NCBI GenBank assembly: GCA_963692945.1
Contig: OY843585.1
Coordinates: forward strand, 1,230,001 to 1,262,000
Direction of reading: 5' to 3'
DNA length: 32,000 nucleotides
Source of the DNA: Bdellovibrionales bacterium
GTDB taxonomy: Bacteria; Bdellovibrionota; Bdellovibrionia; Bdellovibrionales; UBA1609
In this document: piece after piece, positions 1 through 30,541 of the stretch
Numbering within the stretch: the first letter of the stretch is position 1
How the letters are laid out: each line of letters opens with the position of its first letter
Translations under genes and position numbers: made by a program
Notes under the pieces: generated by a model
The model's database searches: none
Seen by the model: the letters and a program-made list of their open reading frames with translations, nothing else
What the model was told of the DNA's origin: nothing

Positions 1-771
1 AAAGTTCCTAAGCCTCCTAGCTTTGTTAAATCAGAAGCCTATCTACCTTTAAAACCTATATTACCTCCTGAAGAACAAAGAAAAATTGTAAAACCAGAAG
101 TAAAAAAGAGAAAACCAGAATGTGCCTCTGTTCCTCTAATAGATGAAGCTGTTGTTTTTCAAAGTGTGGAAGCCCCTCAAATAGAATTTATGGATGAGCA
201 AAAACATCCTCCTTATGACAACTATGATTTAGTTATGGGAAAACCTGCTGGTGTTCTAGTCACAATAGATGTGAAAAGTATGGACAAGAAATCTAAAAAC
301 AAACTAAAACTCCATAGAGATTTTAGACTTTCTTTATCTATACAAGGTATGAAAATATCTAAATGCTTTAGAGAACCTTTTGCTAAAAGAAAAAATAAAT
401 CGTTTAAAACAATGAAAAAAGAGGATGGGATACCTTGTCATTTAAAAAAATCAGAAATTTTAAAAGGTAAATTTCAAGTCTTTTTTCCTCTTCCTATGAA
501 TGAAAATTTTATGAAAAGAGAACTGAGAAGTTTACCTATTAAAGTAACTCTTTTCCCTAGATGGCAAATTGACAATCCAAAATGCTTAAGTGAAAAGACA
601 GTGAATATAAACACTTGGAGTACACCAGATTTGAATTTAGGTTTTACAGCAGTGGATAGTTATAAATGTAATAAATATAAATCTGTTCCTCCTAAAATGG
701 TCGGTCAATTTGCTATAATTCAAATGAGGTTACAAATTATATACCAGCTATGTTTCCTATTAACAAAGTAA
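1..771 (+). CDS. Hypothetical Pro/Lys-rich protein, 5'-truncated by the window edge; possibly the N-terminal part of the downstream HExxH protein
   Basis: Frame 1 has no stop from nt 1 (KVPKPPSFVKSEAYLPLKPILPPEEQRKIVKPEV...) into the listed 166..771 ORF, so the GTG at 166 is unlikely to be the true start. No domain recognised by eye. The last 22 nt overlap the next ORF. Confidence 0.5.
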   Translation, partial: KVPKPPSFVKSEAYLPLKPILPPEEQRKIVKPEVKKRKPECASVPLIDEAVVFQSVEAPQIEFMDEQKHPPYDNYDLVMGKPAGVLVTIDVKSMDKKSKNKLKLHRDFRLSLSIQGMKISKCFREPFAKRKNKSFKTMKKEDGIPCHLKKSEILKGKFQVFFPLPMNENFMKRELRSLPIKVTLFPRWQIDNPKCLSEKTVNINTWSTPDLNLGFTAVDSYKCNKYKSVPPKMVGQFAIIQMRLQIIYQLCFLLTK

Positions 772-1841
772 ATACTGGCATATTAAATTCTATAAGAGGA
801 CTTTGTAATAATAGACCAGTGAAACATAAAAGGTTTCGCCACCCTATATCTATTGGTTTATTAAAAGATGCAGATAAGTTGTATAAACTTATACATAACA
901 ACTCCTATGATAAAGTAGTAGCCATTGCTTCAATTGAATACTTTGATTTTCATAATAGAAAAACTGCAGCAGGGACAGTTATAAGACCTCGTTCAAATGA
1001 GAACCTTATATCTAGGATTTTAAAAGGACGTTATATTGGTGGAAATAACAATGTGACTTTTATTAGAGAAGATCAAGAAAATACAGGAACAATATCTCAT
1101 GAGTTGGCACACACTCTAGGACAAGGAAAAGAACAATATAAAAAAGCAAAAAGTTACTGCAAAGAATTTAAGGGTTCTGATCCTAATCCTTGTGAAGATC
1201 TCAAAATTGCTCGTGGTTTAAAGGCTACTAAAAGTAACAGATGGAGATTTATAGAAAATAAATATAGCATTATGAATAGTAGTAACAAGATTGGAAATCA
1301 ATGGATAGATAGAGATACCTTTCAAAAAATCTTTTATTTTCTTACAAATTTTGGAACTCATTTTCCAAGAACAAGCATGTCCAATAACAGATTAAAAAAT
1401 AGAGAAGCCATTACTATTTCTGGTTTTTATAATGAAAAAGAAGATATTTTTGTTGTTCCTACAAAAAGAAAAGTCAAAACCTATAAATCTACCCCTACTT
1501 TTCCAACAGAGAAATATAAAGATACTCCTGTTTTAACTTTTCAGTTCAAATATAATGAAAAGATTCTCAAAGAAATAAAAAGACCAATTTTTGAAATGGA
1601 AATCAAAACTTTATATAGTGACAAACCTCCAGAAGTTAAACCTTTTGACTTTTCACATGCTATGGCTTCTTTTGAGATTCCTAGAAATCACAAAAACAAA
1701 GTTTTTCAAATTCTTGTTTTAAATCCAAAAGAAAAAATCATTTATGATTCTAAATTTAGAATCAAAAAAAATAAAAAACCTAAACAACAAAAAAAGAAAG
1801 ATAAAAATGGAAATTTTGCTTTTCTTGACAAAACTTATTAA
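750..1841 (+). CDS. Putative zinc metalloprotease (zincin, HExxH motif)
   Basis: Single HExxH site in the context TGTISHELAHTLGQGKEQY. Lys-rich C-terminal tail (RIKKNKKPKQQKKKDKNG). No Shine-Dalgarno before the ATG at 750, and frame 3 is open back to 696, so the start is uncertain. Family not recognised. Confidence 0.5.
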   Translation: MFPINKVNTGILNSIRGLCNNRPVKHKRFRHPISIGLLKDADKLYKLIHNNSYDKVVAIASIEYFDFHNRKTAAGTVIRPRSNENLISRILKGRYIGGNNNVTFIREDQENTGTISHELAHTLGQGKEQYKKAKSYCKEFKGSDPNPCEDLKIARGLKATKSNRWRFIENKYSIMNSSNKIGNQWIDRDTFQKIFYFLTNFGTHFPRTSMSNNRLKNREAITISGFYNEKEDIFVVPTKRKVKTYKSTPTFPTEKYKDTPVLTFQFKYNEKILKEIKRPIFEMEIKTLYSDKPPEVKPFDFSHAMASFEIPRNHKNKVFQILVLNPKEKIIYDSKFRIKKNKKPKQQKKKDKNGNFAFLDKTY

Positions 1842-1859
1842 AAGAGGGTTAATTAAGTT

Positions 1860-2414
1860 ATGAAAGTATTTTTTTGTTTATGGTTAGGATTGATTATTGT
1901 TTCTTTTGGTTGTTGGGAAAAAGATTATAAAAACTATCCTCATAAAAAATATTCAATTAGAGAACCTGTGACTTTTCCTGATAAGAATTTGTCTGAGATT
2001 AGACTCTCTGGTGATTATTCTACATCAGGAACTAAGGAAAAGTTTGAATATAAAGGAAGCAATCCCTGCTATTATGTAAAAAAACCTAAAAAAGGAGATA
2101 TTTTAGATAAAAATTTAAGAGCTAGGCTTTATGATAAAGATGGCAATATACTTACCGAAGATTTCTTGAGAGTCTGGGATACTTATGATAAATATTTTAG
2201 AGTAATATCTTATCTTCCTTATGATGACAATGGTCATGAGATTCGCATTGTAAGATTAAAAGACAATCAGGAGGTAACTCTTGAAACCATTGAATTTTTA
2301 TCTGAATCTCAATTAAAAGAATTAGATGGTGGAGGGAGGCTTAACATCACTATTAACCATGGTTGGTATTTTAAAAAAGAAGCCCAGTGCTTTATTCCTC
2401 CTCCTTATAGATAA
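1860..2414 (+). CDS. Paralogous lipoprotein family, copy 1 (184 aa)
   Basis: Signal peptide MKVFFCLWLGLIIVSFGC. Shares the motifs LSGDYS.SG.KEKFEY.G, LRARLYDKDGNILTEDFLR, YLPYDDNGHEIRIVRLKDN and CFIPPPYR with copies 2 and 4. Conserved AATTAAGTT leader before the ATG. Confidence 0.75.
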   Translation: MKVFFCLWLGLIIVSFGCWEKDYKNYPHKKYSIREPVTFPDKNLSEIRLSGDYSTSGTKEKFEYKGSNPCYYVKKPKKGDILDKNLRARLYDKDGNILTEDFLRVWDTYDKYFRVISYLPYDDNGHEIRIVRLKDNQEVTLETIEFLSESQLKELDGGGRLNITINHGWYFKKEAQCFIPPPYR

Positions 2415-2464
2415 ATTTTTGTAAATTCTGCACTTTTAACGGAGCAAAAATAAAAGATTTAAGT

Positions 2465-2485
2465 ATTAGAATTTTAAATTCTAAT
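2465..2485. promoter_or_regulatory. Perfect 10+1+10 palindrome in the copy 1 / copy 2 intergenic spacer
   Basis: attagaattt-t-aaattctaat. The arms are exact reverse complements. A 1-nt centre suits a dimeric DNA-binding site better than an RNA hairpin. AT-rich, so chance is not excluded. Confidence 0.25.
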
Positions 2486-2558
2486 AGAAAAGTTCTTTAC
2501 AAAGCTCCTCTTATTAAAAAAGAAAGCAATGCTAAAAAAACAGAAGGAGAATAAGAAG

Positions 2559-2603
2559 ATGAGATTGACAAAAATCACTGGAAAAGAGTTAATTAAGTTA
2601 TGA
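2559..2603 (+). CDS. Possible 14-aa leader ORF (MRLTKITGKELIKL) ending in an ATGA overlap with paralog copy 2
   Basis: AAGGAG (2544-2549) lies 9 nt upstream of the ATG at 2559. The TGA stop (2601-2603) overlaps the ATG (2600-2602) of the next gene. Very short, A-rich and unvalidated. Confidence 0.2.
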   Translation: MRLTKITGKELIKL

Positions 2604-3163
2604 AGATGTTTTTTTGTTTATGGTTAGGATTGATTATTGTTTCTTGTGGTTTTCTAGAAGAAGATTATAATTCTGATTTTTCTGATTTTTTTGAAGTTTA
2701 TAATTCTGATTTTCTTCCTGAACAATCTTTTACATATCCTGATAAAAACTTAGGGGAAATTCAACTCTCTGGTGATTATTCTGTATCAGGAATTAAAGAA
2801 AAATTTGAATATAGAGGAATTAGATACTGTTATTATACAACAAAACCTAAAAAAGATACTTTGGATAAAAATTTAAGAGCTAGGCTTTATGATAAAGATG
2901 GCAATATACTTACCGAAGATTTCTTGAGAACCAGTGAAATTTTTAGAACTAGTACTAGAATTAACTCTTATCTTCCTTATGATGACAATGGTCATGAAAT
3001 CCGTATCGTAAGGTTAAAAGATAATAAGGAAATAACTATTGAAACCATTGAATTTTTATCTGAAGCTCAATTAAAAGATTTTAATGAAGGAATTGGATTT
3101 AATCCCGGATGGTATTTTAGAGGAGGGAGAGCTCATTGTTTTATTCCTCCTCCTTACAGATAA
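2600..3163 (+). CDS. Paralogous lipoprotein family, copy 2 (187 aa)
   Basis: Lipobox-type signal peptide MKMFFCLWLGLIIVSCG. Near-identical to copy 4 over most of its length. Carries an internal ~33-nt duplication (YNSDFSDFFEV/YNSDFLPE). Confidence 0.75.
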   Translation: MKMFFCLWLGLIIVSCGFLEEDYNSDFSDFFEVYNSDFLPEQSFTYPDKNLGEIQLSGDYSVSGIKEKFEYRGIRYCYYTTKPKKDTLDKNLRARLYDKDGNILTEDFLRTSEIFRTSTRINSYLPYDDNGHEIRIVRLKDNKEITIETIEFLSEAQLKDFNEGIGFNPGWYFRGGRAHCFIPPPYR

Positions 3164-3184
3164 GTTTATTGTAAAAATTAAGTT

Positions 3185-4111
3185 ATGAGAGCATTTTTAT
3201 TATTCAGCTTTTTATTATCAACCTGTTTAGGTTTTACATCTTGCAATGAGAAAAATTTAGGAACTATTCATCAATCTTCAGGGTCAGAAAATAATCAAGA
3301 AGATATTTCAGAAGAAAAACCCAATGAAGAAGATATTAAGTATTTTTTTATTCGTATGGATTATGAAATTTCTATGTGGGATATAGATACTGATGATTAT
3401 TATGATTCTGATTCTGGTTGGGTTTATGTACCTCAAGATATAGAAGAGGAATTTAATATAGTAGATTCAAAAAGAAATGTAGTAGATATAATGAAGATGT
3501 TAAAATTAGTAAAAATACTATGTGATGATGAAGAGGATGAGTGCATGGAAGAGCCAGCAGAACATGGAGAATGTGAAAATCATTATAAATATGGCCATGA
3601 ATGTTACTATAAAACAAATACAAATATAATAGAAGAGCATAAACAAATTGCTGAAGACTATACTTCTAAGTATAAAAAATATTGCACAGACTTTCCAAAA
3701 AATGAGATAGAGGCTCCTATTTTTAATGACAATATTCGTATTAGATTGTATGACAGGAATGATAAGATAATTGCAGAAAGCAAAGTAAAAGGAGATGTTT
3801 CAGCTCCAAAAACCTATGATGGTAGAACCTATTTAACTGGGATTTTAAAACTTCCTCCAAAAGAACAAAGAGAGGGATTAAAATATCGTATAGTTCATTT
3901 AGATGAAAATGGAAATCCAAAACCTTATCTTTTTCAAGGAGTAAAAAAACCGTTTATATATTATTTCTTAGAAGGCGATATTGAGTCTTATTCTAGAATA
4001 CAAAAGTACTGGAACTACGTTAAAAATGAAGAAAGTAATGAGTGTTACCATAAACCACGACGAAAATCTTGCAACCTATTACCATCTACAAGATGCATAT
4101 TAAAATATTAA
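3185..4111 (+). CDS. Expanded, divergent member of the lipoprotein family, copy 3 (308 aa)
   Basis: Signal peptide MRAFLLFSFLLSTCLGFTSC. The C-terminal half keeps the family motifs (IRIRLYDRNDKIIAES versus LRARLYDKDGNILTED; YRIVHLDENGNP versus IRIVRLKDNKE). The N-terminal half is acidic with a Cys/His/Glu-rich insert. Same AATTAAGTT leader. Confidence 0.7.
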   Translation: MRAFLLFSFLLSTCLGFTSCNEKNLGTIHQSSGSENNQEDISEEKPNEEDIKYFFIRMDYEISMWDIDTDDYYDSDSGWVYVPQDIEEEFNIVDSKRNVVDIMKMLKLVKILCDDEEDECMEEPAEHGECENHYKYGHECYYKTNTNIIEEHKQIAEDYTSKYKKYCTDFPKNEIEAPIFNDNIRIRLYDRNDKIIAESKVKGDVSAPKTYDGRTYLTGILKLPPKEQREGLKYRIVHLDENGNPKPYLFQGVKKPFIYYFLEGDIESYSRIQKYWNYVKNEESNECYHKPRRKSCNLLPSTRCILKY

Positions 4112-4140
4112 AGAAAACACAAATTCACTTGAATTAAGTT

Positions 4141-4671
4141 ATGAAAATATTTTTTTATTTATGGTTAGGATTGGTTATTATCTCTTGTGGTTTTCTAGAA
4201 GAAGATTATAATACTGATTTTCATTTGTTTCCTGAACTATCTTTCACATATCCTGATAAAAACTTAGGGGAAATTCAACTCTCTGGTGATTATTCTGTAT
4301 CAGGAATTAAAGAAAAATTTGAATATAGAGGAATTAGATACTGTTATTATACAACAAAACCTAAAAAAGATACTTTGGATAAAAACTTAAGAGCTAGGCT
4401 TTATGATAAAGCAGGTAATATACTTTCAGAAGATTTTTTGAGAACCAGTGAAATTTTTAGAACTAGTACTAGATTTAACTCTTATCTTCCTTATGATGAC
4501 AATGGTCATGAAATCCGTATCGTAAGGTTAAAAGATAATAAGGAAGTAACTATTGAAACCATTGAATTTTTATCTGAAGCTCAATTAAAAGATTTTAATG
4601 AAGGGATTGGATCTAATCATGGGTTGTATTTCAACAGAAAAACTCATTGCTTTCAGTATCCACATCATTAG
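4141..4671 (+). CDS. Paralogous lipoprotein family, copy 4 (176 aa)
   Basis: Signal peptide MKIFFYLWLGLVIISCG. Near-identical DNA to copy 2 except for a short central tract and a divergent C-terminus (NRKTHCFQYPHH instead of GGRAHCFIPPPYR). Confidence 0.75.
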   Translation: MKIFFYLWLGLVIISCGFLEEDYNTDFHLFPELSFTYPDKNLGEIQLSGDYSVSGIKEKFEYRGIRYCYYTTKPKKDTLDKNLRARLYDKAGNILSEDFLRTSEIFRTSTRFNSYLPYDDNGHEIRIVRLKDNKEVTIETIEFLSEAQLKDFNEGIGSNHGLYFNRKTHCFQYPHH

Positions 4672-4710
4672 AATCTACTATCTTTATAGAAAAAAAGGTT
4701 AATGTAAATT

Positions 4711-4752
4711 ATGAAAATATTTTTATTGTTAGGATTGGTCGCAATTCATTAA
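4711..4752 (+). pseudogene. Remnant of a fifth paralog 5' end (MKIFLLLGLVAIH, then stop)
   Basis: atgaaaatatttttattgttaggattggtc resembles the copy 4 start atgaaaatatttttttatttatggttaggattggtt. It is preceded by ttaatgtaaatt, which resembles the family leader, and hits a stop after 13 codons. Confidence 0.35.
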
Positions 4753-4853
4753 ATCCTTTTTTAAATGTTAATACATTAGAAAAACTAGTTTTAATGCAAA
4801 TACCAAAAACAAAAATAATCTGTATCTTACAAATTTTTAAGAATGCTTTGATC

Positions 4854-5858
4854 TTAAAACTTGGTCTTTAAAGAAAAAATCCATTCCTTTTTTTTAAGAA
4901 TAGCATCTTGTTCTTTCAACCATTCCACTGTAAAAAATAAATTTTTTGTGAAATAAAAATCTCCTCTGAAAAGATATTCTTCCATAAAATATTGATCTTT
5001 TTGTAATACACTCTCAGTTCTTCCAAACAAAAAGCCAAAAGACCATTTTTTCCATTTTAAATAAGGAAAAACATAGTAGGTCAATGAGTTTTGATGAGGC
5101 TCACTCTTTTTCACCCCCCAAAACTCTCCTCTAAAACCCAAAAGCAAAGATTTAATATCAAAAAATAAATCTGAACCAAAACCTAAAGATCGTATTTTTC
5201 CTTCTAAAAAAAACTTTTGTTGAAAGTAACTGGCAAAAAAACTTTTGTTGAATTGCTCATAAATAAAACTCGTAGTGAAGATAGGATATAGATCTGACTT
5301 TTGAATCAAATCAGTTCCTCTTTGAAGAGATGATGACTGCAAACTTGTCTTCCAATAAAAAGAAGGAACCACCTCTCTTTCTAACATTACTCCAATAGCT
5401 CTATCTCCTTCAAAAAAGAGAGTTTTATGCATTAAAGTTTTTTTGGAAAACAGATTTTCATTTTCTATCACATAGGACACAGGATAAGAAAAATAACCAA
5501 ACTGAAAACTAAACGGAGTAAAGTTTTGTTGCTTCACAAAAAAATTATCAATCGCATAAGCCCAATCTCCCTTTTGATAAGAAAACTCAATTTCCATCTT
5601 GATAAAATTACTTTTTGAAAAAGGATAATAAAACTCCATTTCTGTATAAGGAATCTCTGCTGACCAAGAATTGATTAAATTATTTTTTATTAAAGCCAAA
5701 GAACTTTCTAAATGAAAAGAAATATCAAAGTCTTTGTTATCTTTTTGTAAATCTTGTGTATCTAATGGATTAGATAAGTTTAAAGAAATTTCAGACCTGT
5801 TTTTATTAGCAAAAACTGTTTGTGCAAAAAATAAAATAAAAAATAAAATAGTTTTCAT
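4854..5858 (-). CDS. Putative outer-membrane beta-barrel protein
   Basis: Cleavable signal peptide MKTILFFILFFAQTVFA. Aromatic-rich alternating segments throughout. C-terminal residue is Phe (..IFSLKTKF), typical of BAM substrates. Family not recognised. Confidence 0.55.
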   Translation of the reverse strand: MKTILFFILFFAQTVFANKNRSEISLNLSNPLDTQDLQKDNKDFDISFHLESSLALIKNNLINSWSAEIPYTEMEFYYPFSKSNFIKMEIEFSYQKGDWAYAIDNFFVKQQNFTPFSFQFGYFSYPVSYVIENENLFSKKTLMHKTLFFEGDRAIGVMLEREVVPSFYWKTSLQSSSLQRGTDLIQKSDLYPIFTTSFIYEQFNKSFFASYFQQKFFLEGKIRSLGFGSDLFFDIKSLLLGFRGEFWGVKKSEPHQNSLTYYVFPYLKWKKWSFGFLFGRTESVLQKDQYFMEEYLFRGDFYFTKNLFFTVEWLKEQDAILKKKEWIFSLKTKF

Positions 5859-5897
5859 AAAAAAATTTAATTCAATCTCAAAAAGCTTTATTTGAAC

Positions 5898-6524
5898 TTA
5901 TAAAACTCTTGGAGATATTCTAGCTCCTTCAATCAAATTTGAGTGAGACAATTTAAGCCCCCATTTTACACCCTGACCTTTTGTATAAAAAATCAACCCT
6001 TCTGAAAGAGAGTCAACCAAGAGATTTTCATTACTTAAAATTCCTACCTTATGTTTTAAGATTCCATTTCTATTTACAAAATTTTCCCATATTTGAATAT
6101 GAAAACCGTAACTCACTCCATTTTCCACCTCTACAGTGAAATCTATTTCATTGTTATTTAAAAAATAATTTTCTTTTTTAAGTAAAAGTTTATCTGGGTA
6201 ACCTTGAATAGAAACTTTTACAACCAAATGAAATGCTTTTCTTTCAAACTGAACTCTCACTCCATCTTCCAAATCAAATCCTCTAAAATGACTAAATAAT
6301 TCCAACTGAGACATTTCAGAAGGAAGATAGGCTTTAATCAAGTAGTATTCCTTTGATAGAACTCCTGAAATAGGTTTCTTAGATAGAAATCTCATAACAG
6401 AATTGTCATTTTGAATAAGATTCATTTCTTCTATAGACAAATAGGTTTCAGACATAAAAAAAGAATTGCAAGAACAAAAACAAAATAAAATCTTAATAAA
6501 AATAATTACTAATGGTTTTCTCAT
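5898..6524 (-). CDS. Hypothetical lipoprotein (208 aa)
   Basis: N-terminus MRKPLVIIFIKILFCFCSCN has a signal peptide with Cys-containing lipobox-like end. Sits 39 nt upstream of the beta-barrel gene and 22 nt downstream of the ankyrin gene. Confidence 0.55.
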   Translation of the reverse strand: MRKPLVIIFIKILFCFCSCNSFFMSETYLSIEEMNLIQNDNSVMRFLSKKPISGVLSKEYYLIKAYLPSEMSQLELFSHFRGFDLEDGVRVQFERKAFHLVVKVSIQGYPDKLLLKKENYFLNNNEIDFTVEVENGVSYGFHIQIWENFVNRNGILKHKVGILSNENLLVDSLSEGLIFYTKGQGVKWGLKLSHSNLIEGARISPRVL

Positions 6525-6546
6525 CTCTTACTCTTTTTTAAAATGA

Positions 6547-7773
6547 CTAAATACTACCTTCTAATTGTTGTCTTTTAAATTGAAAAATCTCTTTAGGAGT
6601 TTGACCGTCATGATTGACCTGCTCTATATCACCATATTTTTTAAGTTGCTCATAAAAAAAAGAATCTACTAATCTTGCTGAAATGTGCAAACTACTTTCT
6701 CCTTGTTTATTGATAGAATTGACATGATCTGCAATTCCTAACCAAGTTAATCTTGTCTGACTTTCCATAAGAAGAACAAAAATCTCTTTTATCCATTCAT
6801 CATGATAAGATTTTGAGACATCTAAAGTTAATAAAAAGTTTTGAAGAGGAGTGTTTCCTTTATTGTCTGGCAAAATATAATCCGTCCATTGGCAAGAAGA
6901 CAGAATACGAATCCCATCAAAAAACATATTTTTTGCACTAAAATTTATAGCTGTCATTCCCTCTTCATCCTGAGTATTTATCAAATCATCAACATCAAGT
7001 CCTATGGGCTTTCCATACCTTTGGACACCTCTCCAAAATAAAATAGGATATTTATAATAAAATTCTTTATGTCCCCACTCTTCTTTTTTTACGCAATTTT
7101 GTTCTAAACCCCAACGAAGTAAATCGCTATTTTGATCTCTCACAGCTGTATGTAAAATACTTTGATCTTTATTATTTTTAAGATACTGAAATTTTCTAAA
7201 AGGATATTCAAAAGAACCCCGCCAATACTCATGCTTTAAGGCTTCAGCCGTAATGTAATTTTTTGCTACATGAATAGCTCGCTCCCCTGCATGAGTTACC
7301 CTATCCAAATCAGAAAATTCATAATCAGATAAAATAAAATCCTGTTTGTTATCAAAAAAACCATTTGCTAAAAATTTGATTAAACTCACATAGCCTTTTT
7401 GAGAAGCTAAATAGATATAACCTTCCCCTTGATGATTTGTCTTCAAATAATGTTGAGGGCTTAATTGTTTTGTAATAAATAAAGCTCCCTTTAAATTGTA
7501 AAATTTTATAGCCAAAGCCAAAGCTGTATCTCCGTTGGCATTGACATCAAAAAGATACTGCCCGTTTTGATCTATTATTTCCTGTAAAACTTGATTCTTA
7601 GATTTATCTACTAAAGCTACAAAGAGTGGATTAGGGAAAAGGGCTTGTCTTTGTTCAGGTGAGAAAGAATCACTCCGATGGCTTGAACTCTCTTGAACGT
7701 TTTGCCAATCTGCACAGGACAATAACCAACTACAGAAAAAAATTATTATTATTATTTGTTTCATTGATTTCAC
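6547..7773 (-). CDS. Ankyrin-repeat lipoprotein (408 aa)
   Basis: Lipobox signal MKSMKQIIIIIFFCSWLLSC. Several ankyrin-like units: NANGDTALALAIKFYNLKGALFI, NHQGEGYIYLASQKGYVSLIKFL, DQSILHTAVRDQNSDLLRWGLEQ, DEEGMTAINFSAKNMFFDGIRIL, DNKGNTPLQNFL, NKQGESSLHISARL...GDIEQVNHDGQTPKEI. Confidence 0.7.
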   Translation of the reverse strand: MKSMKQIIIIIFFCSWLLSCADWQNVQESSSHRSDSFSPEQRQALFPNPLFVALVDKSKNQVLQEIIDQNGQYLFDVNANGDTALALAIKFYNLKGALFITKQLSPQHYLKTNHQGEGYIYLASQKGYVSLIKFLANGFFDNKQDFILSDYEFSDLDRVTHAGERAIHVAKNYITAEALKHEYWRGSFEYPFRKFQYLKNNKDQSILHTAVRDQNSDLLRWGLEQNCVKKEEWGHKEFYYKYPILFWRGVQRYGKPIGLDVDDLINTQDEEGMTAINFSAKNMFFDGIRILSSCQWTDYILPDNKGNTPLQNFLLTLDVSKSYHDEWIKEIFVLLMESQTRLTWLGIADHVNSINKQGESSLHISARLVDSFFYEQLKKYGDIEQVNHDGQTPKEIFQFKRQQLEGSI

Positions 7774-7792
7774 ACTCCCCTCCTCAGTTTTA

Positions 7793-8446
7793 TTATTTGC
7801 AATTTATATACTCCTTAATAGAATATTTTTCCTTAACGACTCTTTGAATTTTATAAAGTGAAAAAGCATTTGGTTGATCTTTAAAATCTGAAATACTTTT
7901 TATTATAAGATTCAATCTAGTCCAATCCAATTCTTTCAAAGAATGGGTTAAATAAGTTACCATATGTTGACTAAAAGTAGAAAGAATAATTTTTAAAATC
8001 ACTTCTGTATCCAAAGCCTCATAATCCTTAGCTTTGCCACTCTTTAAAAAACGTACGATTTCAGGAAAAGATTTCATAGCATTAAATAACTTAGGATTCA
8101 TTGAATCCGAATCCATTAACTTCATACGAGTTTTTAAATCTGACTGGTGTGGAAATTCTATTTGTTTGAGAGTTTCTTTTTCAAAATAAGTAATAGCTTC
8201 CTCCAAAACAGAAACATAAAAATTCATCTCTGTATCAGAAAGTATCCCTTTTAAAAGAGGCATCTCTTTATAAACAGAAGAAAAAAGCTCTTTAGAGTAA
8301 GCACTTGTCCATTTGTCTTTTAAAAATAGATTGTACTTCACAGGATCTGATCTAAAAACAGTCTTGCACTTTTCCAATAAACTAGAACTAGCAGATGAGT
8401 AAAAAACAAATATTATAAAAAATAATAGAGTTAAATATTTTATCAT
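7793..8446 (-). CDS. Hypothetical secreted protein (about 217 aa from the internal Met)
   Basis: The Met at 8446 (MIKYLTLLFFIIFVFYSSASS = signal peptide) forms an ATGA overlap with the stop (8445-8443) of the upstream gene. The listed start at 8473 is probably too long. No recognisable domain. Confidence 0.55.
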   Translation of the reverse strand: MIKYLTLLFFIIFVFYSSASSSLLEKCKTVFRSDPVKYNLFLKDKWTSAYSKELFSSVYKEMPLLKGILSDTEMNFYVSVLEEAITYFEKETLKQIEFPHQSDLKTRMKLMDSDSMNPKLFNAMKSFPEIVRFLKSGKAKDYEALDTEVILKIILSTFSQHMVTYLTHSLKELDWTRLNLIIKSISDFKDQPNAFSLYKIQRVVKEKYSIKEYINCK

Positions 8447-10251
8447 TGATATTTCTCCACAATTTTTTTGCATTCAGGAATTTTTGTTTTAAATGGCAAA
8501 AAACTAAAGACAGTCTTTTTTTCTTTGGATAAAGACATTGTTTGTATATGATACTTTTGTGAGTTTAATTTTTTAAAAAGAAATTCTTTATTTAAATCAT
8601 TACTTTTTAAGAAAGTTTGAACCTCATGGAGATACGTAAAAAAAGCCAAAAGTTTTTCCATAGATTCATATTTATAAAATTGGATTTTTGTTTTATCTTT
8701 TATCACAGCAACAGAAAGTAAAAAATCAGAAAAATTATAAACTAAATGAAAGAAACGACCAAAAGCCCATTGCAGTTTTAGCTTCTCTGTAAAAGACATT
8801 TGATGTTTTTGTGATAAAATAAGAGAAGACATTTTCAAGTATTTTGTGAACAAAGCTCCTAAAGTCATTTCAAGAACATATACACTGGCCACACGTTCTT
8901 TGGTAGGTAAACTCGTATTAAAAATGACTTCTATATCTTTTAAAAAAAATTGAATGGCTTCTTTTTTATCATCCAATTTGTCATTATTTTCTAAATTTAT
9001 TTTTTTAGACAAAAACTCTTCTATCAAGCCATCTCTAATGATATCAGGATGGACTTGGGAAACTTCAGTTTGAGATTTTGAAATCAGCATTCTCTCTATG
9101 ACATTTTCCTGAAGAGAAAGAGGCCATAAAAGATTTTTATCTATTATTTTATCTGGCATTCCTTTTCCTGCCATATAACCTATGCGACTTTTTCTGGATT
9201 TCAATAACAAATATCTTTTGAATTTTGCACCAAAAAAATCTTTTCTGTTCACTTTAGAAAGATTTTCAATTTTATTTTGAGATTTTGAAATTTGTTTTAT
9301 TATGGATTGTCTCTCTTTTGAGTCAGTCTGTTGTTGTAACTTTTCCTCTAAATATTTTATTTTTTTAAAAAAAGGATCTGTATTTCTTTTTAATTTTTCA
9401 ATCCACAACAAACGATGTCCTTTTCTATGAAATAAACTTTTAGGGCCAGTTTTGTTAACTTTTTCCAACTCCTCCTTCCTAAATATCAATGCTTGATCAA
9501 TATGAAAGAATACTCTTTTCCTACTTTTTTTAATCTGACGAGACAACCAAGCTGTTTTAAACAAAACAAGTGATCCACTTGCATCCATTTGCCTTCCATA
9601 AGAAAAAACTCTTGTATATTTTTGAAATTTTCTGGTTAAAGGAAAAATCATGACATCAATAGCATTACAAAAAATATGTGCTCCTTTAATTCCCATAAAA
9701 ACAGATAAAATAGTTTCAGCCACTTCTGCACTCAACTTTAGCCCTGCTGCAACATAACCATAATTTGCCGTGAGATAAGCACCTTGATAACTGATCTCTT
9801 TTCCCATATGTTTCCCTGGTTCTAAAAATTTTTGTCTTAAAAAACTTTTAGGCAAATAATTTTTTGCTTCTTGAACCATTAAATCAGCATCTAAATCGCA
9901 AGAGCAGTGTTTTTCAATTTCTTCTATATAAATTCTGACCCAAGCTTTTGTTAAATTCCAAAAACCTTGATTTAAATAAATTTTATTCTTCCCCACTTTA
10001 TAAAATGGAACAACGGAATTGTCTTGAACATGAGTTAATAAATCAGGAGATAGTAAAATAGCTTTTTCAAAAACTTTTAAAGCAACTTCAATTTCTTTTT
10101 CATGCAATTCATCATGAGAAAAAGAGATGAAAGAAAAAAAAGTCAGAAATAAAACTAAAACTTTTACAATTCCAATATTTAAAAAATTTATTTTTATAAG
10201 TTTGAACTTTGAAAAAACCTTATAAAAAAGAGAAAAATCACTAAAAGACAT
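8443..10251 (-). CDS. Hypothetical membrane-anchored protein (602 aa)
   Basis: N-terminal hydrophobic segment IGIVKVLVLFLTFFSFISF. A second hydrophobic patch (YVAAGLKLSAEVAETILSVFMGIKGAHIFCNAIDVMIFPL). Lys-rich coiled-coil-like middle. No motif I can assign. First gene of a five-gene co-oriented cluster. Confidence 0.55.
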   Translation of the reverse strand: MSFSDFSLFYKVFSKFKLIKINFLNIGIVKVLVLFLTFFSFISFSHDELHEKEIEVALKVFEKAILLSPDLLTHVQDNSVVPFYKVGKNKIYLNQGFWNLTKAWVRIYIEEIEKHCSCDLDADLMVQEAKNYLPKSFLRQKFLEPGKHMGKEISYQGAYLTANYGYVAAGLKLSAEVAETILSVFMGIKGAHIFCNAIDVMIFPLTRKFQKYTRVFSYGRQMDASGSLVLFKTAWLSRQIKKSRKRVFFHIDQALIFRKEELEKVNKTGPKSLFHRKGHRLLWIEKLKRNTDPFFKKIKYLEEKLQQQTDSKERQSIIKQISKSQNKIENLSKVNRKDFFGAKFKRYLLLKSRKSRIGYMAGKGMPDKIIDKNLLWPLSLQENVIERMLISKSQTEVSQVHPDIIRDGLIEEFLSKKINLENNDKLDDKKEAIQFFLKDIEVIFNTSLPTKERVASVYVLEMTLGALFTKYLKMSSLILSQKHQMSFTEKLKLQWAFGRFFHLVYNFSDFLLSVAVIKDKTKIQFYKYESMEKLLAFFTYLHEVQTFLKSNDLNKEFLFKKLNSQKYHIQTMSLSKEKKTVFSFLPFKTKIPECKKIVEKYQ

Positions 10252-10259
10252 AGCGTGTC

Positions 10260-10287
10260 ATTATAGCCATTTAACAGCATTTGTCTA
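10260..10287 (-). promoter_or_regulatory. Candidate sigma70-type promoter giving a leaderless or near-leaderless mRNA for the 602-aa gene
   Basis: On the - strand: TAGACA (10287-10282), a 16-nt spacer, then TATAAT (10265-10260), which ends 8 nt before the ATG at 10251. No Shine-Dalgarno. AT-rich background makes chance matches likely. Confidence 0.35.
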
Positions 10288-10464: not shown

Positions 10465-10644
10465 TGCGAAAAACAGTAGTTTTTCTCTAGAAATACCTTT
10501 TTATTTTTTGAGATTTGAAGAGTGTCCCTCTTACAATAAAAAGCTCAAAAAATAAAAAGGAAGCACTAGAGTTTTGTAAAATGGTGGAGGGAGTGATTTG
10601 CCTACTACATTCATTCGCATCCAGCTCACTCATTGCGTAGGCTC
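10465..10644. repeat. Direct repeat copy A: hairpin, ~95-nt element and a decayed 3' fragment of tRNA-Tyr
   Basis: 10465-10594 aligns almost base for base with 10762-10891 (offset about 297 nt). The homology then continues into the tRNA T-arm and variable arm with two 2-nt deletions and a 31-nt insertion (10605-10635). Confidence 0.8.
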
Positions 10645-10761: not shown

Positions 10762-10908
10762 TGCGAAAAACGAAGTTTTTCTCTAGGAATACCTTTCTTA
10801 TTTTTTGAGATTTGAAGAGTGTCCCTCTTACGATGAAAAGCTCAAAAAATAAAAAGGAAGCACTAGAGTTTTGTAAAATGGTGGAGGGAGTAGGATTTGA
10901 ACCTACGT
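10762..10908. repeat. Direct repeat copy B, abutting and including the 3' part of the intact tRNA-Tyr
   Basis: tgcgaaaaacgaagtttttctctaggaatacctttcttattttttgagatttgaagagtgtccctcttacgatgaaaagctcaaaaaataaaaaggaagcactagagttttgtaaaatggtggagggagt... matches copy A. Confidence 0.8.
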
Positions 10909-10964
10909 AGGCATAAGCCAACGATTTTACAGACCGCCCCCTTTAACCACTCGGGCATCCCTCC
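10879..10964 (-). tRNA. tRNA-Tyr (anticodon GUA), class II with long variable arm, CCA encoded
   Basis: - strand reads GGAGGGATGCCCGAGTGGTTAAAGGGGGCGGTCTGTAAAATCGTTGGCTTATGCCTACGTAGGTTCAAATCCTACTCCCTCCACCA. The 7-bp acceptor stem, anticodon loop CTGTAAA and T-arm GTAGG/TTCAAAT/CCTAC were folded by eye. Confidence 0.9.
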
Positions 10965-10967
10965 ATA

Positions 10968-11043
10968 TGGAGCTGGGTAAGGGACTCGAACCCCCAACCT
11001 GCTGATTACAAATCAGCTGCTCTACCAATTGAGCCAACCCAGC
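10968..11043 (-). tRNA. tRNA-Thr (anticodon UGU), CCA encoded
   Basis: - strand reads GCTGGGTTGGCTCAATTGGTAGAGCAGCTGATTTGTAATCAGCAGGTTGGGGGTTCGAGTCCCTTACCCAGCTCCA. Has acceptor GCTGGGT/ACCCAGC, D-arm GCTC/GAGC and anticodon stem GCTGA/TCAGC with loop TTTGTAA. Lies 3 nt upstream of tRNA-Tyr. Confidence 0.9.
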
Positions 11044-11140: not shown

Positions 11141-11857
11141 TTAAAAAACTTTATACTGACGGCAATACTCCCCTAAAACCAAGGCTGTAACCACAGAGAC
11201 ATTGTAACTTGCCTCTTTTGTTTTTTGAGGAATAGATAATTTCTTATCTGATGCCTTTAAAAGACTCTTACGAATACCTGATTCTTCACTTCCTAAAATA
11301 AAAGCTGTGCGAACATCAAGATTTTCCTGCCAAATACTGTCCTCTGCCGAATGATCTAAAGCATAAATCCAAAAACCAGATTTTTTTAAAAACTCAACAT
11401 AAGAGTATAAATCATCCCCTATTTCTATAGGAACATGCTCAACTCCTCCACTAGCCGTTTTAATAACGGAAGGGGTTAAAGAGACAGACCGACGAGAAGA
11501 AATAAAAATACCATCCACTCCCATCAACCAAGAAGTCCTTATAATGGCTCCAAAGTTTTTAGGATCTTCCAAACCATCTAAAATAAGAACAACGGATTTT
11601 TCTCCCAAATTTTTTTTTGAAAAAGAAAGATTGTCTTCTACATACACACAAACTCCCTGATGATGATCATAAATTTGATTGAGTTTTTTAAGAGAAAGAG
11701 TTTCTGGATTCAAAGATTTTTGTTGAGCCAATTTAAAAAGATTTACAAGAGTGGAACTTTTCTCCCAGTCTGGCTTAAAATACACTTTTTTTATTTCCTC
11801 TGTTGAACGGACTTTTAAAGCTTCCCTAACAGAGTGAATACCAACCACTTTACGCAT
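11141..11857 (-). CDS. rlmB: SpoU/TrmH-family RNA 2'-O-methyltransferase, RlmB-like
   Basis: Has N-terminal GIHSVREAL, LILDGLEDPKNFGAIIRTS, FILGSEESGIRKSLL and LSIPQ....SYNVSVVTALVLGE, which are the SPOUT methyltransferase motifs. Overlaps the end of pyrF by 8 nt. Confidence 0.75.
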   Translation of the reverse strand: MRKVVGIHSVREALKVRSTEEIKKVYFKPDWEKSSTLVNLFKLAQQKSLNPETLSLKKLNQIYDHHQGVCVYVEDNLSFSKKNLGEKSVVLILDGLEDPKNFGAIIRTSWLMGVDGIFISSRRSVSLTPSVIKTASGGVEHVPIEIGDDLYSYVEFLKKSGFWIYALDHSAEDSIWQENLDVRTAFILGSEESGIRKSLLKASDKKLSIPQKTKEASYNVSVVTALVLGEYCRQYKVF

Positions 11858-12527
11858 AAATAGACTGACTCAAATTCTTTAAAATTTCTGAAGGGTTTTT
11901 AGATTGTGTTAAACTTCTTCCCATAACCAATATAGAACTTCCCGCTTGAAAAGCTTCTGTAGGAGTCATCACTCTTTTTTGATCCCCTTTATCATCATTT
12001 TCTAAACGAATCCCCGGCGTTACTAATAAAATAGTTTTGTATTTCTGCCTTAGATTCTTAACTTCCAAAGGAGAACAAACTAAAGAATTCAATCCACTTT
12101 CAACAACTAAATCGGCAAGTTCCTCCACTTTTTGTTGAGCCTCAACACTCTCTACGCTTGACAAAACTGTCACTGGCAAAACTTTAAACAATCGCTCTTG
12201 AGTTAACTCTTTTTCTAGATCAGCCAATAACTTTAAAGTTTTTCCACCTACAGAAGCATGAACTGTCACATAATTTGCTCCAATATGGTATGACGACTTC
12301 ACAGCCTCTAAAGTGGAAGAGGGAATATCATAAAATTTAAAATCTAAAAAGATTTCTGCTGTGGAGTTGTAGGATTTCAGTTCTGAAATCAATTCCTTAC
12401 CATATTGAAGAAATAAACGAGGACCTATTTTATATCCTAAAATATGGGAATGAGTTTTTTCTACTAAAGAGAAAACTTGCTCTTTTGTATCTACATCAAG
12501 AGCTAAAAAAATAGGAAGCTTTTTCAT
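11850..12527 (-). CDS. pyrF: Orotidine 5'-phosphate decarboxylase
   Basis: Has LPIFLALDV, GYKIGPRLF, IFLDFKFYDIPSST, VTVHASVGG and a C-terminal VMGRSL. Length 225 aa. Confidence 0.9.
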   Translation of the reverse strand: MKKLPIFLALDVDTKEQVFSLVEKTHSHILGYKIGPRLFLQYGKELISELKSYNSTAEIFLDFKFYDIPSSTLEAVKSSYHIGANYVTVHASVGGKTLKLLADLEKELTQERLFKVLPVTVLSSVESVEAQQKVEELADLVVESGLNSLVCSPLEVKNLRQKYKTILLVTPGIRLENDDKGDQKRVMTPTEAFQAGSSILVMGRSLTQSKNPSEILKNLSQSIYA

Positions 12528-12542
12528 TATTATAAAGTCTTA

Positions 12543-13535
12543 TTACTTTTGAGATTTAAATTCAACACTAATAGGATTTTTTATATGTAAATCTCTTTGA
12601 GGGTAAGCAATAGTAATTTCATTTTCCATAAATTGTTTATTGATTTCAAATCTCAGATCACTAGCCACCTTTTGAATATCAAAAATCACTTCTACAGCAA
12701 TCCAATAATTTAATGTAAAAACTAGAGAATCATCCCCAAAGTCAGAAAAGAGAACGACAGGCTTCTGGTTTTTGTTATAAGTTAAAACTCTTTCATGATC
12801 TTCAGCAATTTTTAAAAGAATCTCTTCCACTTTTTTAACTGGAGAACCGTAAGCAACTCCCACTTGAATTTTAGAACGAATCACTTCATCAGAAAGTGTC
12901 CAATTTAAAACATTTTTTTCTAAAAGAAAACTATTTGGGATGATAACATGAGTGTTATCCAGAGTTTTCACAGTTATGGCTCTAAAACCTATACTATCCA
13001 CAACACCTTTTAAATTTTCTACTTCTATTACATCTCCAACTCGTATGGGATGCTCTATAACAATAACAATTCCACTAATAAAATTGTTCATTATATTCTT
13101 AGCACCAAAACCTATTCCCAAGGCAATGGCACCACCTACCACTGTAAAGACAGTAAGAGGAACTTTAATAAGATAAAGAGTAAATAAAAATAATAATGAG
13201 ATTAAAGTATAAAACAGAAGAACTTTAATCGTATATCGCTTTGGGATTTCTATATCTAACCGTGATAAAACCCTATGTTCAAAATAAGAAACAAGTAATT
13301 TTATCGCTATGTATCCACCAATAAGAAAACTTAATCCTATAAGTAGTTTTCCAGCAGTTATGGGATTTTTATCAACATTGAATAAGATAAAATTCCAAAA
13401 AGAAGGGAAGATTTCTAAAAGACTCTCTAAGAACAAACGAACATAAACAAAAAATTCTTCTTTATCCCATGACATATTTCCTATAAGAATTTGACGAAAC
13501 ATAAAACCTACTCCCTTAAATAAATTATGAAACAA
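12543..13535 (-). CDS. Mechanosensitive ion channel, MscS family
   Basis: N-terminal TM helices followed by the MscS core NFISGIVIVIEHPIRVGDVIEVENLKGVVDSIGFRAITVKTLDNTHVIIPNSFLLEKNVLNWT. Exact start uncertain because there are several early Met codons. Confidence 0.85.
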   Translation of the reverse strand: MFHNLFKGVGFMFRQILIGNMSWDKEEFFVYVRLFLESLLEIFPSFWNFILFNVDKNPITAGKLLIGLSFLIGGYIAIKLLVSYFEHRVLSRLDIEIPKRYTIKVLLFYTLISLLFLFTLYLIKVPLTVFTVVGGAIALGIGFGAKNIMNNFISGIVIVIEHPIRVGDVIEVENLKGVVDSIGFRAITVKTLDNTHVIIPNSFLLEKNVLNWTLSDEVIRSKIQVGVAYGSPVKKVEEILLKIAEDHERVLTYNKNQKPVVLFSDFGDDSLVFTLNYWIAVEVIFDIQKVASDLRFEINKQFMENEITIAYPQRDLHIKNPISVEFKSQK

Positions 13536-13634
13536 TTTGTAGAGAAATACAAAACCTTGATAAGCCCCCTATCTTGCAGTGTATAATACTTCTTTGAAAA
13601 AAATGGATATTACTATTTTTCTGAGAACTAAAAA

Positions 13635-13663
13635 TTAACATTGCAAGCCTGTTCATATATGAT
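13635..13663 (+). promoter_or_regulatory. Candidate promoter for the sucA operon
   Basis: TTAACA (13635-13640), a 17-nt spacer, then TATGAT (13658-13663), about 30 nt upstream of the sucA ATG. An alternative is TTGATA (13557-13562) / TATAAT (13582-13587) with a long 19-nt spacer. Confidence 0.25.
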
Positions 13664-13692
13664 AGAAGAATATCGTAGAGAGATAAATACTT

Positions 13693-16434: not shown

Positions 16435-16450
16435 GTATTAAGGTTTATTT

Positions 16451-17725
16451 ATGAAGTTAGAAATTAAAGTTCCCTCTGTTGGAGAATCTGTCACTCAAGC
16501 GGATATTGAAACTTGGGAAAAATCTGACGGAGACTTTGTTCAAAAAGGAGAAACTCTTGTTGTTTTAGGAACTGATAAAGCCTCTATGGAAGTACCAGCC
16601 GAAATGGATGGAGTTCTTAACCTTATCAAACAAAACGGAGAAACTGTTTCAGTAGGAGAAGTGATTGCCACTATAGATACAGATGAAAAAGCCATTGCCA
16701 AAGCACAATCAGCTTCTCAAGTACAAAAAACTCAAAAAGATACAAAAACTTCACAATCACTGGAAAGGATGGATCATTCACAACAAGAATCAAAACATCC
16801 TCCTGAAATGAAATTAAGCCCTTCTGTAAGACATTTAGCAGGAGAACATAATATAGATCCTAAAAATGTCACTACCACTGGAAAGAATGGACGACTCACA
16901 AAAAAAGATATTTTAGAAGCTCTCGCTCACCCTGAATCCTCTAAAGAAACGGAAGTTTTACAAACGGAAGTTTTACAAACGAAAGTTTTACAAACGGAAG
17001 TTTTACAAACGGTAACATCTGTCAAAAAAGGACAACAAAGAGAGGCTATGAGTAGATTACGTAAAAGAACAGCAGAGCGATTGGTTCAATCTCAACAAGC
17101 CACAGCAACTCTAAGTACTTTTAATGAAGTGGATATGTCTCGCATTATGGAATTGAGAAAGAACTATCAAGATACTTTTGTAAAAAGATATGGAATCAAA
17201 CTTGGTTTCATGAGTTTTTTTGTAAAAGCCATTGTGTCAGCTCTTAAACAGTATCCCAAAATGAATGCCTTTATTGACGGAACAGATATCATCTATAACA
17301 ACTCTTACAATATAGGCGTTGCTGTAGGAACAGAAAGAGGTTTGGTTGTTCCTGTTATTTTTAATAGTGAAGATTTAAGTTTAGCAGCTATTGAAAAACA
17401 AATTCTTATTTACAAAGAAAAAGCGATTTCTAAAAAATTAACACCTGACGATCTCCTAGGTGGGACTTTCACTATCAGCAACGGAGGAGTCTTTGGTTCT
17501 TTACTCTCCACACCGATTTTGAACCCTCCACAAAGTGGGATTTTAGGAATGCATAAAATAGAACAAAGACCTGTTGTGATTGACAATAAAATAGAAATAA
17601 GACCTCTCATGTATGTTGCTCTTTCTTATGACCATCGTATTGTGGACGGAAGAGAGTCCGTTGGATTTTTAGTCAAAGTCAAAGAAGGTCTGGAAGAGCC
17701 TGCTCGTTTACTGATAGATATTTAG
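16451..17725 (+). CDS. sucB: Dihydrolipoyllysine-residue succinyltransferase (E2o)
   Basis: Lipoyl domain with [11 protein letters not shown], subunit-binding domain [29 protein letters not shown], and catalytic domain ending [13 protein letters not shown]. Confidence 0.95.
16949..17012 (+). repeat. 15-bp in-frame tandem repeat (4 copies plus a partial) in the sucB inter-domain linker
   Basis: acggaagttttacaa x4, with one a/g variant in copy 3. Encodes [21 protein letters not shown]. Confidence 0.9.
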
Positions 17726-17736
17726 GAGATATAAAA

Positions 17737-22872: not shown

Positions 22873-22884
22873 TAACCTCTCCCT

Positions 22885-23724: not shown

Positions 23725-23725
23725 C

Positions 23726-25459: not shown

Positions 25460-25492
25460 ACTGTAAAAATCTCCACTTTACATATTATATCC

Positions 25493-28788: not shown

Positions 28789-28829
28789 AGTACCCCTTTA
28801 AAAGGTCAGATAAGATCTCAAAGAAAATT

Positions 28830-29243: not shown

Positions 29244-29304
29244 ACCTATTCTCCTTTTTAAAATTTTATTATAAACTACGCTATTAAAACATAGGTTAGA
29301 CCTT

Positions 29305-30510: not shown

Positions 30511-30541
30511 ATTGTATTTCCATTTTAACTTTTAAAAAGCA

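Follow-up and report, generated by a model that had tools for sequence, protein, structure and literature searches.

Among the described envelope systems that come closest to the locus analysed here, ZinT and CopC are periplasmic metal handlers whose mature N-termini are rich in His or provide a His ligand, and the proteobacterial Pho box consists of 7-bp direct repeats with an 11-bp period and the half-site CTGTCAT, a repeat architecture that is typical of OmpR/PhoB-type response regulators. Ankyrin repeats typically act as protein-docking scaffolds; the ankyrin protein Bd3460 reportedly shields the Bdellovibrio predator from its own DD-endopeptidases, and the ankyrin proteins of sponge symbionts are usually assumed to be host-targeting effectors. 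The subject of this analysis is a cassette of five genes, designated A to E, located at positions 4854–10251 of a 32,000-nt stretch of contig OY843585.1 (positions 1,230,001–1,262,000) from a Bdellovibrionales bacterium, with the whole stretch being referred to as the window. The cassette matches no described system: the porin fold predicted for E and the ankyrin repeats of C belong to known classes, and A, B, and D constitute three orphan families. Its conservation across related genomes identifies it as a genuine, uncharacterised outer-envelope module and not as a chance neighbourhood, and we tentatively favour the view that it handles solutes or metals in the outer membrane and periplasm.

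The cassette is encoded on the minus strand, beginning with gene A (8443–10251), which specifies a protein of 602 amino acids (aa). Gene B (7793–8473) is an open reading frame (ORF) of 226 aa, or of 217 aa if read from Met10 at 8446 (7793–8446), and the Met10 start shares an ATGA with the stop codon of A. Gene C (6547–7773; 408 aa, GTG start), gene D (5898–6524; 208 aa), and gene E (4854–5858; 334 aa, C-terminus ...SLKTKF) follow at gaps of 19 nt (B–C), 22 nt (C–D), and 39 nt (D–E), so that the ORFs, lengths, overlap, and spacing given in an initial annotation of this DNA match the ORF list exactly. The G+C content of the region is approximately 29%, and terminator-like sites inside the cassette show no excess (three, versus 2.2 expected in shuffled sequence). 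The same annotation had held that every product is exported and that only the ankyrin repeats can be recognised, and both statements are borne out. Signal sequences are present in A, B, and E and lipoboxes in C and D, and these N-terminal signal sequences are the sole hydrophobic segments of the five products. Pfam detects ankyrin repeats in C alone, and NCBIfam returns no match for any of the five proteins. A, B, and D have no match in Pfam, NCBIfam, PADLOC, or PHROGs, and no credible sequence match in the PDB, and comparison of all five proteins against PADLOC and PHROGs yields only chance-level matches (E-value 0.016 or weaker). Each of the five ORFs has orthologues in collinear related loci, at 24–65% identity for A, C, D, and E and 22–52% for B, and they can hence be regarded as real genes.

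The strongest evidence for a functional unit comes from the comparison of related loci (labelled L001–L021). A one-genome-per-species scan with a profile of A yielded 12 of them (L001–L012), and the loci were compared by tblastn with all window proteins and by clustering of all ORFs. In each of the 16 related loci with enough flanking sequence for judging, which derive from uncultivated Bdellovibrionales, Pseudobdellovibrionaceae, and Oligoflexia, the five families lie side by side, while the flanks differ and no flanking gene family or cluster is common to more than two loci; gene-neighbourhood conservation, proposed as a check on the five-gene set, therefore speaks for it. The arrangement is collinear (A-B-C-D-E, all in the same orientation) in 11 loci (L001–L004, L006, L007, L009–L011, L013, and L014), with overlapping or very short junctions. 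These include the closest relative (L014), on a 1.29-Mb contig, and a locus from a sponge metagenome (L013, SRR1802789) at 34% identity. A divergent layout, with C, D, and E transcribed in one direction and A and B in the other, is seen in five loci (L015 and L018–L021), among them the 3.33-Mb Pseudobdellovibrionaceae chromosome CP060220.1 (L015) and a locus with fragmented genes on a contig labelled 4x (L020). Three further loci (L005, L008, and L012) are interrupted by contig ends and stand outside the count of 16, and a very distant one (L017) keeps only A and B within an 8-kb flank on either side. An A-like protein found alone in L016 (E-value 3e-6), without B to E, was judged too distant to count.

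The persistence of adjacency through an inversion argues for functional coupling of the five genes. The tightest-coupled pairs are A/B and D/E, whose stop and start codons overlap in most loci (for D and E, in most loci where both genes are present). The five genes thus make up a conserved functional neighbourhood that consists of two sub-modules, A-B and C-D-E. The proposal that they constitute one transcription unit, on the other hand, holds only in part: it agrees with the tight packing and with a promoter-like site before A, but the split between A-B and C-D-E in divergent relatives indicates that a single transcription unit would be lineage-specific. The cassette is present in genomes of 1.3–2.2 Mb and in one of 3.3 Mb, and the sources of the relatives include sponge metagenomes (CAR1, RHO2, RHO3, and APA bins) as well as one sea-cave metagenome bin. 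According to a published account (PMC9944714), sponge-associated Bdellovibrionota have reduced genomes, lack motility, and encode many ankyrin domains.

In the C-D-E sub-module, E carries a signal peptide (...TVFA/NK, with the slash marking the predicted cleavage site), contains 22% aromatic residues and no Cys, and ends in Phe. Word-indexed homologue searches returned three and then seven proteins, and an AlphaFold2 (AF2) model built on the resulting seven-sequence alignment is a 16-stranded antiparallel beta-barrel (predicted local distance difference test, pLDDT, 76.8; predicted TM-score, pTM, 0.71), in which a 30-residue loop (residues 124–153) with two short helices lies between strands 5 and 6. 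A Foldseek comparison of this model with the PDB retrieves PorB, OmpU, OmpF/OmpC, OmpK36, and OprP with E-values of 2e-11 to 4e-8, TM-scores of 0.52–0.67, and roughly 10% identity. The top 50 matches are outer-membrane channel barrels, nearly all of them 16-stranded porins, and OprP, OprO, OmpM1, and OmpC-MlaA (porin chain only) are among the matches. No porin family of Pfam matches E or 10 members of its family at E-values up to 1, NCBIfam has no match for E, and a PDB profile search with E returns nothing at E-values up to 5. On the strength of the structural model, E is an outer-membrane channel of the general porin fold, predicted to be of the diffusion type and not an exporter-type barrel. 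L013 contains another E-like barrel gene (4263–5384; 373 aa; profile E-value 1e-17), 2.6 kb upstream of the cassette, and the E family thus has paralogues outside the cassette.

D and C are both predicted from their lipoboxes to be lipidated. The lipobox of D (FCS-C19) contains a Cys that is invariant in 16 orthologues, as part of a set of invariant residues that also comprises S72, G88, W146, G183, G185, W188, G189, and R202. No Pfam family, MlaA included, matches D or nine of its orthologues at E-values up to 1, and NCBIfam has none for D. A PDB profile search with D contains no MlaA chain and provides a single weak lead, a macroglobulin-type domain of CD109 (E-value 0.003). In L014, the D orthologue (13680–14291) is intact but lacks ATG, GTG, or TTG at the conserved N-terminus; a CTG behind an AAAGGA ribosome-binding site is its likely start, and the public gene call spans only 103 aa. 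In C, residues S19 and C20 of the lipobox (LLS-C20) are invariant in 10 orthologues, as are C227 and C294, and the conserved motifs include DYEFSDLD and GERAIHVA. Pfam assigns C to Ank_2 (E-value 1.8e-11; 44.8 bits, cut-off 27.3) and Ank_4 (37.8 bits, cut-off 22.7), and a PDB profile search matches 224 ankyrin chains covering residues 42–402. C is hence, from its sequence, an ankyrin-repeat lipoprotein in which the repeats extend over approximately residues 42–402. It is also the most conserved of the five products, with 35–65% identity to the window protein, versus 24–48% for E.

Protein A defines a family of its own. Its homologues number 42 in an index of 5.8 billion proteins, all of them unnamed and from Bdellovibrionales, Bdellovibrionaceae, and Oligoflexia metagenome bins, many on contigs of 1.2–2.2 Mb, and an exact-sequence look-up of the window protein finds no record. 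A profile of A run against 1.84 billion representative proteins retrieves 105 family members, none with a fused domain and, two borderline matches excepted, all either about 540–680 aa long or fragments. The only name among them is 'hypothetical protein', and they come from Bdellovibrionales/Pseudobdellovibrionaceae bins, together with one partial sequence from a Pseudomonadota-labelled bin. One candidate relative (P0141, E-value 3e-4) was set aside as an apparent chance match, since it is a TPR/GT41 glycosyltransferase. A Pfam scan of all A orthologues detects no family, and no hydrolase, peptidase, or toxin family, and PDB profile searches with 19- and 45-sequence alignments give nothing credible.

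The sequence of A has a net charge of +39 and a single N-terminal hydrophobic segment (residues 16–46), which had been read as a membrane anchor. That reading is not sustained by the family. In 43 of 45 members, the hydrophobic stretch ends in a small-x-small motif followed directly by His (e.g., SFS/HD, SFA/HG, TQA/HG, or AYA/HE), and no further transmembrane segment is present. In the window protein, the signal peptide covers approximately residues 1–45 (...ISFS/HDE), which would leave His46 as the mature N-terminus. Usually this His is followed by a run rich in His, Asp, and Glu, such as HGHDDHDD, HEGHHHGHHHDHEH, or HDDHDHGHNHGHDHD. A is thus most likely exported by Sec, with its signal peptide cleaved before His46, and because its only hydrophobic segment is a signal peptide with a conserved cleavage-type motif, it is probably a soluble protein, periplasmic or secreted, and not membrane-anchored. 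An alignment of 45 sequences, with identities down to 17%, reveals that E176, E179, H192, C195, and C594 are invariant and that H46, C116, and C118 are at least 90% conserved. These residues define the motifs C116-x-C118, E176-x-x-E179, and H192-x-x-C195 and a C-terminal Cys (C594), and the number of Cys is exactly four in 39 of the 45 members. The AF2 model of A is all-helical and of low confidence (pLDDT 59.5, pTM 0.37), its better-modelled parts being a coiled coil (280–330) and a C-terminal bundle (400–570); in this model one predicted helix carries the ExxE pair and the next one the HxxC pair, and the best Foldseek match has an E-value of 0.59. The residue patterns make A a candidate periplasmic metalloprotein or redox-centre protein. 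B, which always lies immediately downstream of A, is a small secreted protein with a signal peptide and two Cys that do not vary among 19 sequences, namely C36, close to the start of the mature chain, and C225, the penultimate residue. No Pfam or NCBIfam family matches B, and a PDB profile search finds no credible relative. The conservation of Cys in A, B, and C is in keeping with an oxidising compartment.

The region upstream of A contains two types of regulatory signal. A promoter-like site (TAGACA-16 nt-TATAAT; 10260–10287, minus strand), which matches the consensus at 11 of 12 positions and is the best site of the region in a consensus scan, ends 8 nt before the ATG of A, and related sites (TAGACAA/TGGACAA ... 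TATAAT/CATAAT/GATAAT) directly precede the ATG in L001, L003, and L014. A has no Shine-Dalgarno sequence, and C has a strong one, GAGGAGGGG. The combination of a -10 element ending about 8 nt before the ATG with no Shine-Dalgarno sequence points to a leaderless or near-leaderless mRNA, from which A is probably translated in several genomes. In L014, a 43-nt unit is repeated perfectly in tandem (3.9 copies, 100% matches) directly upstream of the A promoter (9783–9949), with each unit containing TCAAATCATTTTCATTTGG.

The second signal consists of direct repeats of the form T(T/G/A)TCAT, in two to four copies with an 11-bp period, which occur upstream of A in 11–12 of the 21 loci in arrangements such as TTTCATT-N4-TTTCATT. 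Their core, TCAY-N7-TCAY, has a density of 2.4/kb in the 300 nt upstream of A versus 0.15/kb overall, an enrichment of about 16-fold. Nearly all intergenic occurrences of this core in L001–L012 are upstream of A, and the other two precede genes without Pho or metal annotation. Arrays are located at 9671 in L003, 6380 in L005, 9817 in L006, 9918 in L007, 2187/2204 in L008, 9892 in L009, and 9672 in L010, as well as at 9686–9708 in L011 (TTTCATC-tgat-TCTCATC-ttgc-TTTCATT-ctat-TCTCATC) and 979/1071 in L012 (CTGTCAT-ctga-TTATCAT). In L015 the array lies 104 nt before A, and in L019 it lies 126 nt before A on the opposite strand.

These observations can be assembled into a tentative mechanistic model, in which C, D, and E would form an outer-membrane assembly and A and B a periplasmic pair. 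The porin-fold channel E would admit a small solute or metal ion, and the lipoprotein D would be made in step with E through translational coupling. The ankyrin lipoprotein C would serve as a docking scaffold through which A, together with B, is held at D and E while binding or transforming the solute in the periplasm. A would contribute a metal- or redox-active centre within an all-helical protein, and B would be its small helical partner, held by one disulfide. In many lineages, expression could be set by an OmpR/PhoB-type response regulator as a candidate. Among the five products, neither Pfam nor NCBIfam (Pfam also for the orthologues of A, D, and E) detects an inner-membrane component, an ATPase, a motor driven by proton-motive force, TolQR/ExbBD, or a membrane-fusion adaptor family, and the cassette would therefore constitute a module of the periplasm and outer membrane and not a trans-envelope machine. 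As a whole, this explanation, in which the cassette is lineage-specific and vertically retained in an uncultivated, often genome-reduced and sponge-associated clade of Bdellovibrionales-like bacteria, is the one we prefer, in full awareness that it may well be wrong.

Several observations weigh against it. The cassette encodes no inner-membrane importer, so that an uptake pathway would be incomplete, and the four Cys of A could form two structural disulfides instead. The model of A is poor and has no structural relative, PDB profile searches provide B and D with no informative relatives, and none of the direct repeats precedes A in the window, L001, L004, L013, or L014. A bolder version of the proposal would have A as the founder of an undescribed family of large, all-helical periplasmic metalloproteins, which works with B on a dedicated C-D-E platform. 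The processed N-terminal His and the CxC, ExxE, and HxxC motifs would make up the metal centre of A, and the system would act in acquisition or detoxification across the periplasm and outer membrane and would be confined to Bdellovibrionales-like bacteria. We regard this combination of claims as doubtful.

Other explanations for the same conserved set can be envisaged. The cassette could be a constitutive scaffold for envelope structure or biogenesis that replaces a canonical system missing in the clade and acts in outer-membrane tethering or in lipoprotein or lipid handling, with the E barrel as an anchor and not a channel. Retention of the cassette in strongly reduced genomes (1.3–1.8 Mb) would be natural under such a role, as would the conservation of C, which exceeds that expected of a protein facing the environment, while the very basic A, with its confidently predicted coiled coil, would suit a periplasm-spanning strut, and the Foldseek matches of E do include porins involved in tethering or lipid asymmetry (OmpM1 and OmpC-MlaA). 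However, no peptidoglycan-binding domain (OmpA_C, LysM, or SLH) and no MlaA, LolB, or LptE is detectable in any member, the upstream repeats have a regulated look that suggests conditional expression in many lineages, and the invariant His/Glu/Cys pattern of A resembles a site rather than a strut, all of which render a scaffold unlikely. A role in the interaction with a host or prey is less probable again. Here, C would be displayed on the surface with D and E, and A and B would be secreted effectors, possibly through type II export, that modulate phagocytosis by sponges or contact with prey. The provenance of many relatives from sponge metagenomes is in line with this idea, and so are the genome reduction, lack of motility, and wealth of ankyrin domains described for sponge Bdellovibrionota (PMC9944714). 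A type II secretion operon also lies 11 kb away in the window, and Sec export combined with conserved Cys, as seen in A and B, is typical of type II substrates. Yet in relatives the cassette shows no synteny with the type II secretion genes, it is present in the 3.33-Mb Pseudobdellovibrionaceae genome and in the sea-cave bin too, and C is the slowest-evolving product, contrary to the usual pattern of host-facing effectors. Moreover, E has a predicted porin fold and not that of a lipoprotein-flipping barrel, with Slam/DUF560 and BamA-like features being absent.

Two further explanations carry still less weight. The initial annotation had envisaged a trans-envelope export or anchoring module, with A in the inner membrane, B in the periplasm, and C-D-E at the outer membrane, on the grounds of the gene order, the tight spacing, the N-terminal hydrophobic segment of A, and the envelope destination of all products. 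This proposal loses its inner-membrane element if A is cleaved, as the signal-peptidase-type motif and the His conserved after the hydrophobic segment, without any additional transmembrane segment, make likely. The energising or adaptor component that such a machine would need, be it an ATPase, a motor, or an adaptor, is absent, as is a TolC-like or secretin component. E resembles diffusion porins and not TolC, secretins, ushers, or BamA-type barrels, and in five lineages A-B and C-D-E are divergently transcribed; a machine of this kind is thus very unlikely. It is equally hard to credit that A, with B as its chaperone, is a secreted toxin or lytic factor to which C confers immunity by analogy with Bd3460, an explanation that we would place at the bottom of the list. 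It would accord with the kinship to predatory Bdellovibrio, with a periplasmic ankyrin protein, and with the size, basic character, and export of A, but neither A nor its 105 relatives show a detectable match to a hydrolase, peptidase, or toxin family. Variability and mobility, furthermore, are the usual marks of toxin-immunity pairs, whereas the present genes occur as a single copy, are conserved by vertical descent, and evolve slowly, and the divergent layout groups C with D and E and not with A.

The cassette is among the few gene sets that these reduced, uncultivated relatives of Bdellovibrio have kept intact and together, and its maintenance in reduced genomes suggests that it is likely central to the way in which their envelope deals with the environment or a host. 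A, B, and D lack functionally or structurally characterised relatives, and E can be recognised by its fold only. Should A prove to be a metalloprotein with its own porin-lipoprotein-ankyrin platform, the cassette would represent a new type of periplasmic system, and it would give a bacterial ankyrin protein a concrete periplasmic role; in the bolder version of the proposal, it would be a system that genome-reduced sponge symbionts have retained as core equipment. If it is instead simply a lineage-specific porin with accessory proteins, its interest would be local.

The surroundings of the cassette in the window differ from those in relatives. As had been noted, the cassette converges on a plus-strand array of lipoprotein and HExxH genes that ends at 4671, but the suggested link to this array does not stand, for the array is not conserved next to the cassette in relatives; a homologue is located about 6 kb from the cassette in L002, and elsewhere the two are not syntenic. 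On the plus strand, the array comprises an HExxH protein (750–1841) with a weak Astacin match (E-value 0.01) and paralogous lipoprotein genes (1860–2414, 2600–3163, and 4141–4671) that are up to 95% identical over 300 nt, among which lies an unrelated 308-aa lipoprotein (all within 750–4752). A truncated fifth lipoprotein copy, MKIFLLLGLVAIH*, occupies 4711–4752 on the same strand, in the convergent spacer before E. On the other side of the cassette are genes for tRNA-Tyr (10879–10964) and tRNA-Thr (10968–11043). The last 13 nt of tRNA-Tyr (ACTCCCTCCACCA) and about 110 nt downstream of it are repeated 297 nt on with approximately 97% identity (10483–10594 and 10780–10891, minus strand), and the duplicated stretch lies between the tRNAs and gene A. 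The similarity ends exactly at the 3' end of tRNA-Tyr, and the repeats look like att-type scars of integration and excision at the tRNA or like a decayed duplication. The notion of the cassette as a tRNA-linked island was discarded as a general one, since only the window and L001 have tRNAs flanking it. Beyond the tRNAs, housekeeping genes (11141–19982) encode a SpoU/TrmH methyltransferase, an MscS-type channel, CtaA, and the E2 and E3 components of a 2-oxoacid dehydrogenase, and two ORFs of 225 and 913 aa resemble, by eye, the orotidine monophosphate decarboxylase PyrF and 2-oxoglutarate dehydrogenase E1, respectively. The G+C content of this segment is 31–36%, versus 26–31% in the left 10 kb. 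Further on, the minus strand encodes a type II secretion-like operon (21922–31843), with a GspE-type ATPase (30542–31843) and a GspK-like protein (25493–26761). It could offer an exit route for A and B and is unlinked to the cassette in relatives.

The comparison with described systems places the cassette near several of them without identifying it with any. In its predicted structure, E shares with the general porins (OmpF/OmpC/PhoE, PorB, OmpU, and OprP) the 16-stranded barrel, the size, and the C-terminal Phe, and where those proteins have their constriction loop L3, between strands 5 and 6, the model of E has a long, helix-bearing loop. E departs from them in matching no curated porin family, in belonging to a fixed five-gene set, and in being translationally coupled to a lipoprotein gene. 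The pairing of an outer-membrane porin with a dedicated lipoprotein is likewise found in OmpC/OmpF-MlaA, but D lacks an MlaA/VacJ signature, the D and E genes overlap in most relatives, whereas those of MlaA and OmpC do not form an operon, and the periplasmic and inner-membrane partners of the Mla system are absent from the cassette. Slam, or type XI, systems couple a 14-stranded DUF560 barrel to TPR repeats; the model of E has 16 strands and no periplasmic domain, and neither DUF560 nor TPR_Slam matches E or its orthologues. When set against the exit ducts of trans-envelope machines, E matches diffusion porins and not TolC, secretins, LptD, ushers, or BamA-type proteins.

For the remaining parts of the cassette, the nearest parallels concern single features. 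Like Bd3460 of Bdellovibrio bacteriovorus, C is an exported ankyrin-repeat protein predicted to reside in the periplasm of a Bdellovibrio-type bacterium. It differs in being a lipoprotein, in its length of about 400 aa, some two times that of Bd3460, and in being linked to D and E instead of adjoining a DD-endopeptidase gene. On the regulatory side, the repeats upstream of A match the Pho-box architecture of Pho-regulon porin loci (PhoE and OprP) and nearly match the half-site, but no phosphate-binding or phosphatase family can be recognised in the cassette with Pfam or NCBIfam. Lastly, the likeness of A to ZinT and to CopC-type 'histidine brace' proteins is a lead only: ZinT and CopC are small and beta-rich and share no sequence or fold match with A, which is predicted to be all-alpha, with a coiled coil and about 560 residues in its mature form, but the A family has, in the same manner, a mature N-terminus predicted to begin with His and rich in HxH and His-Asp.

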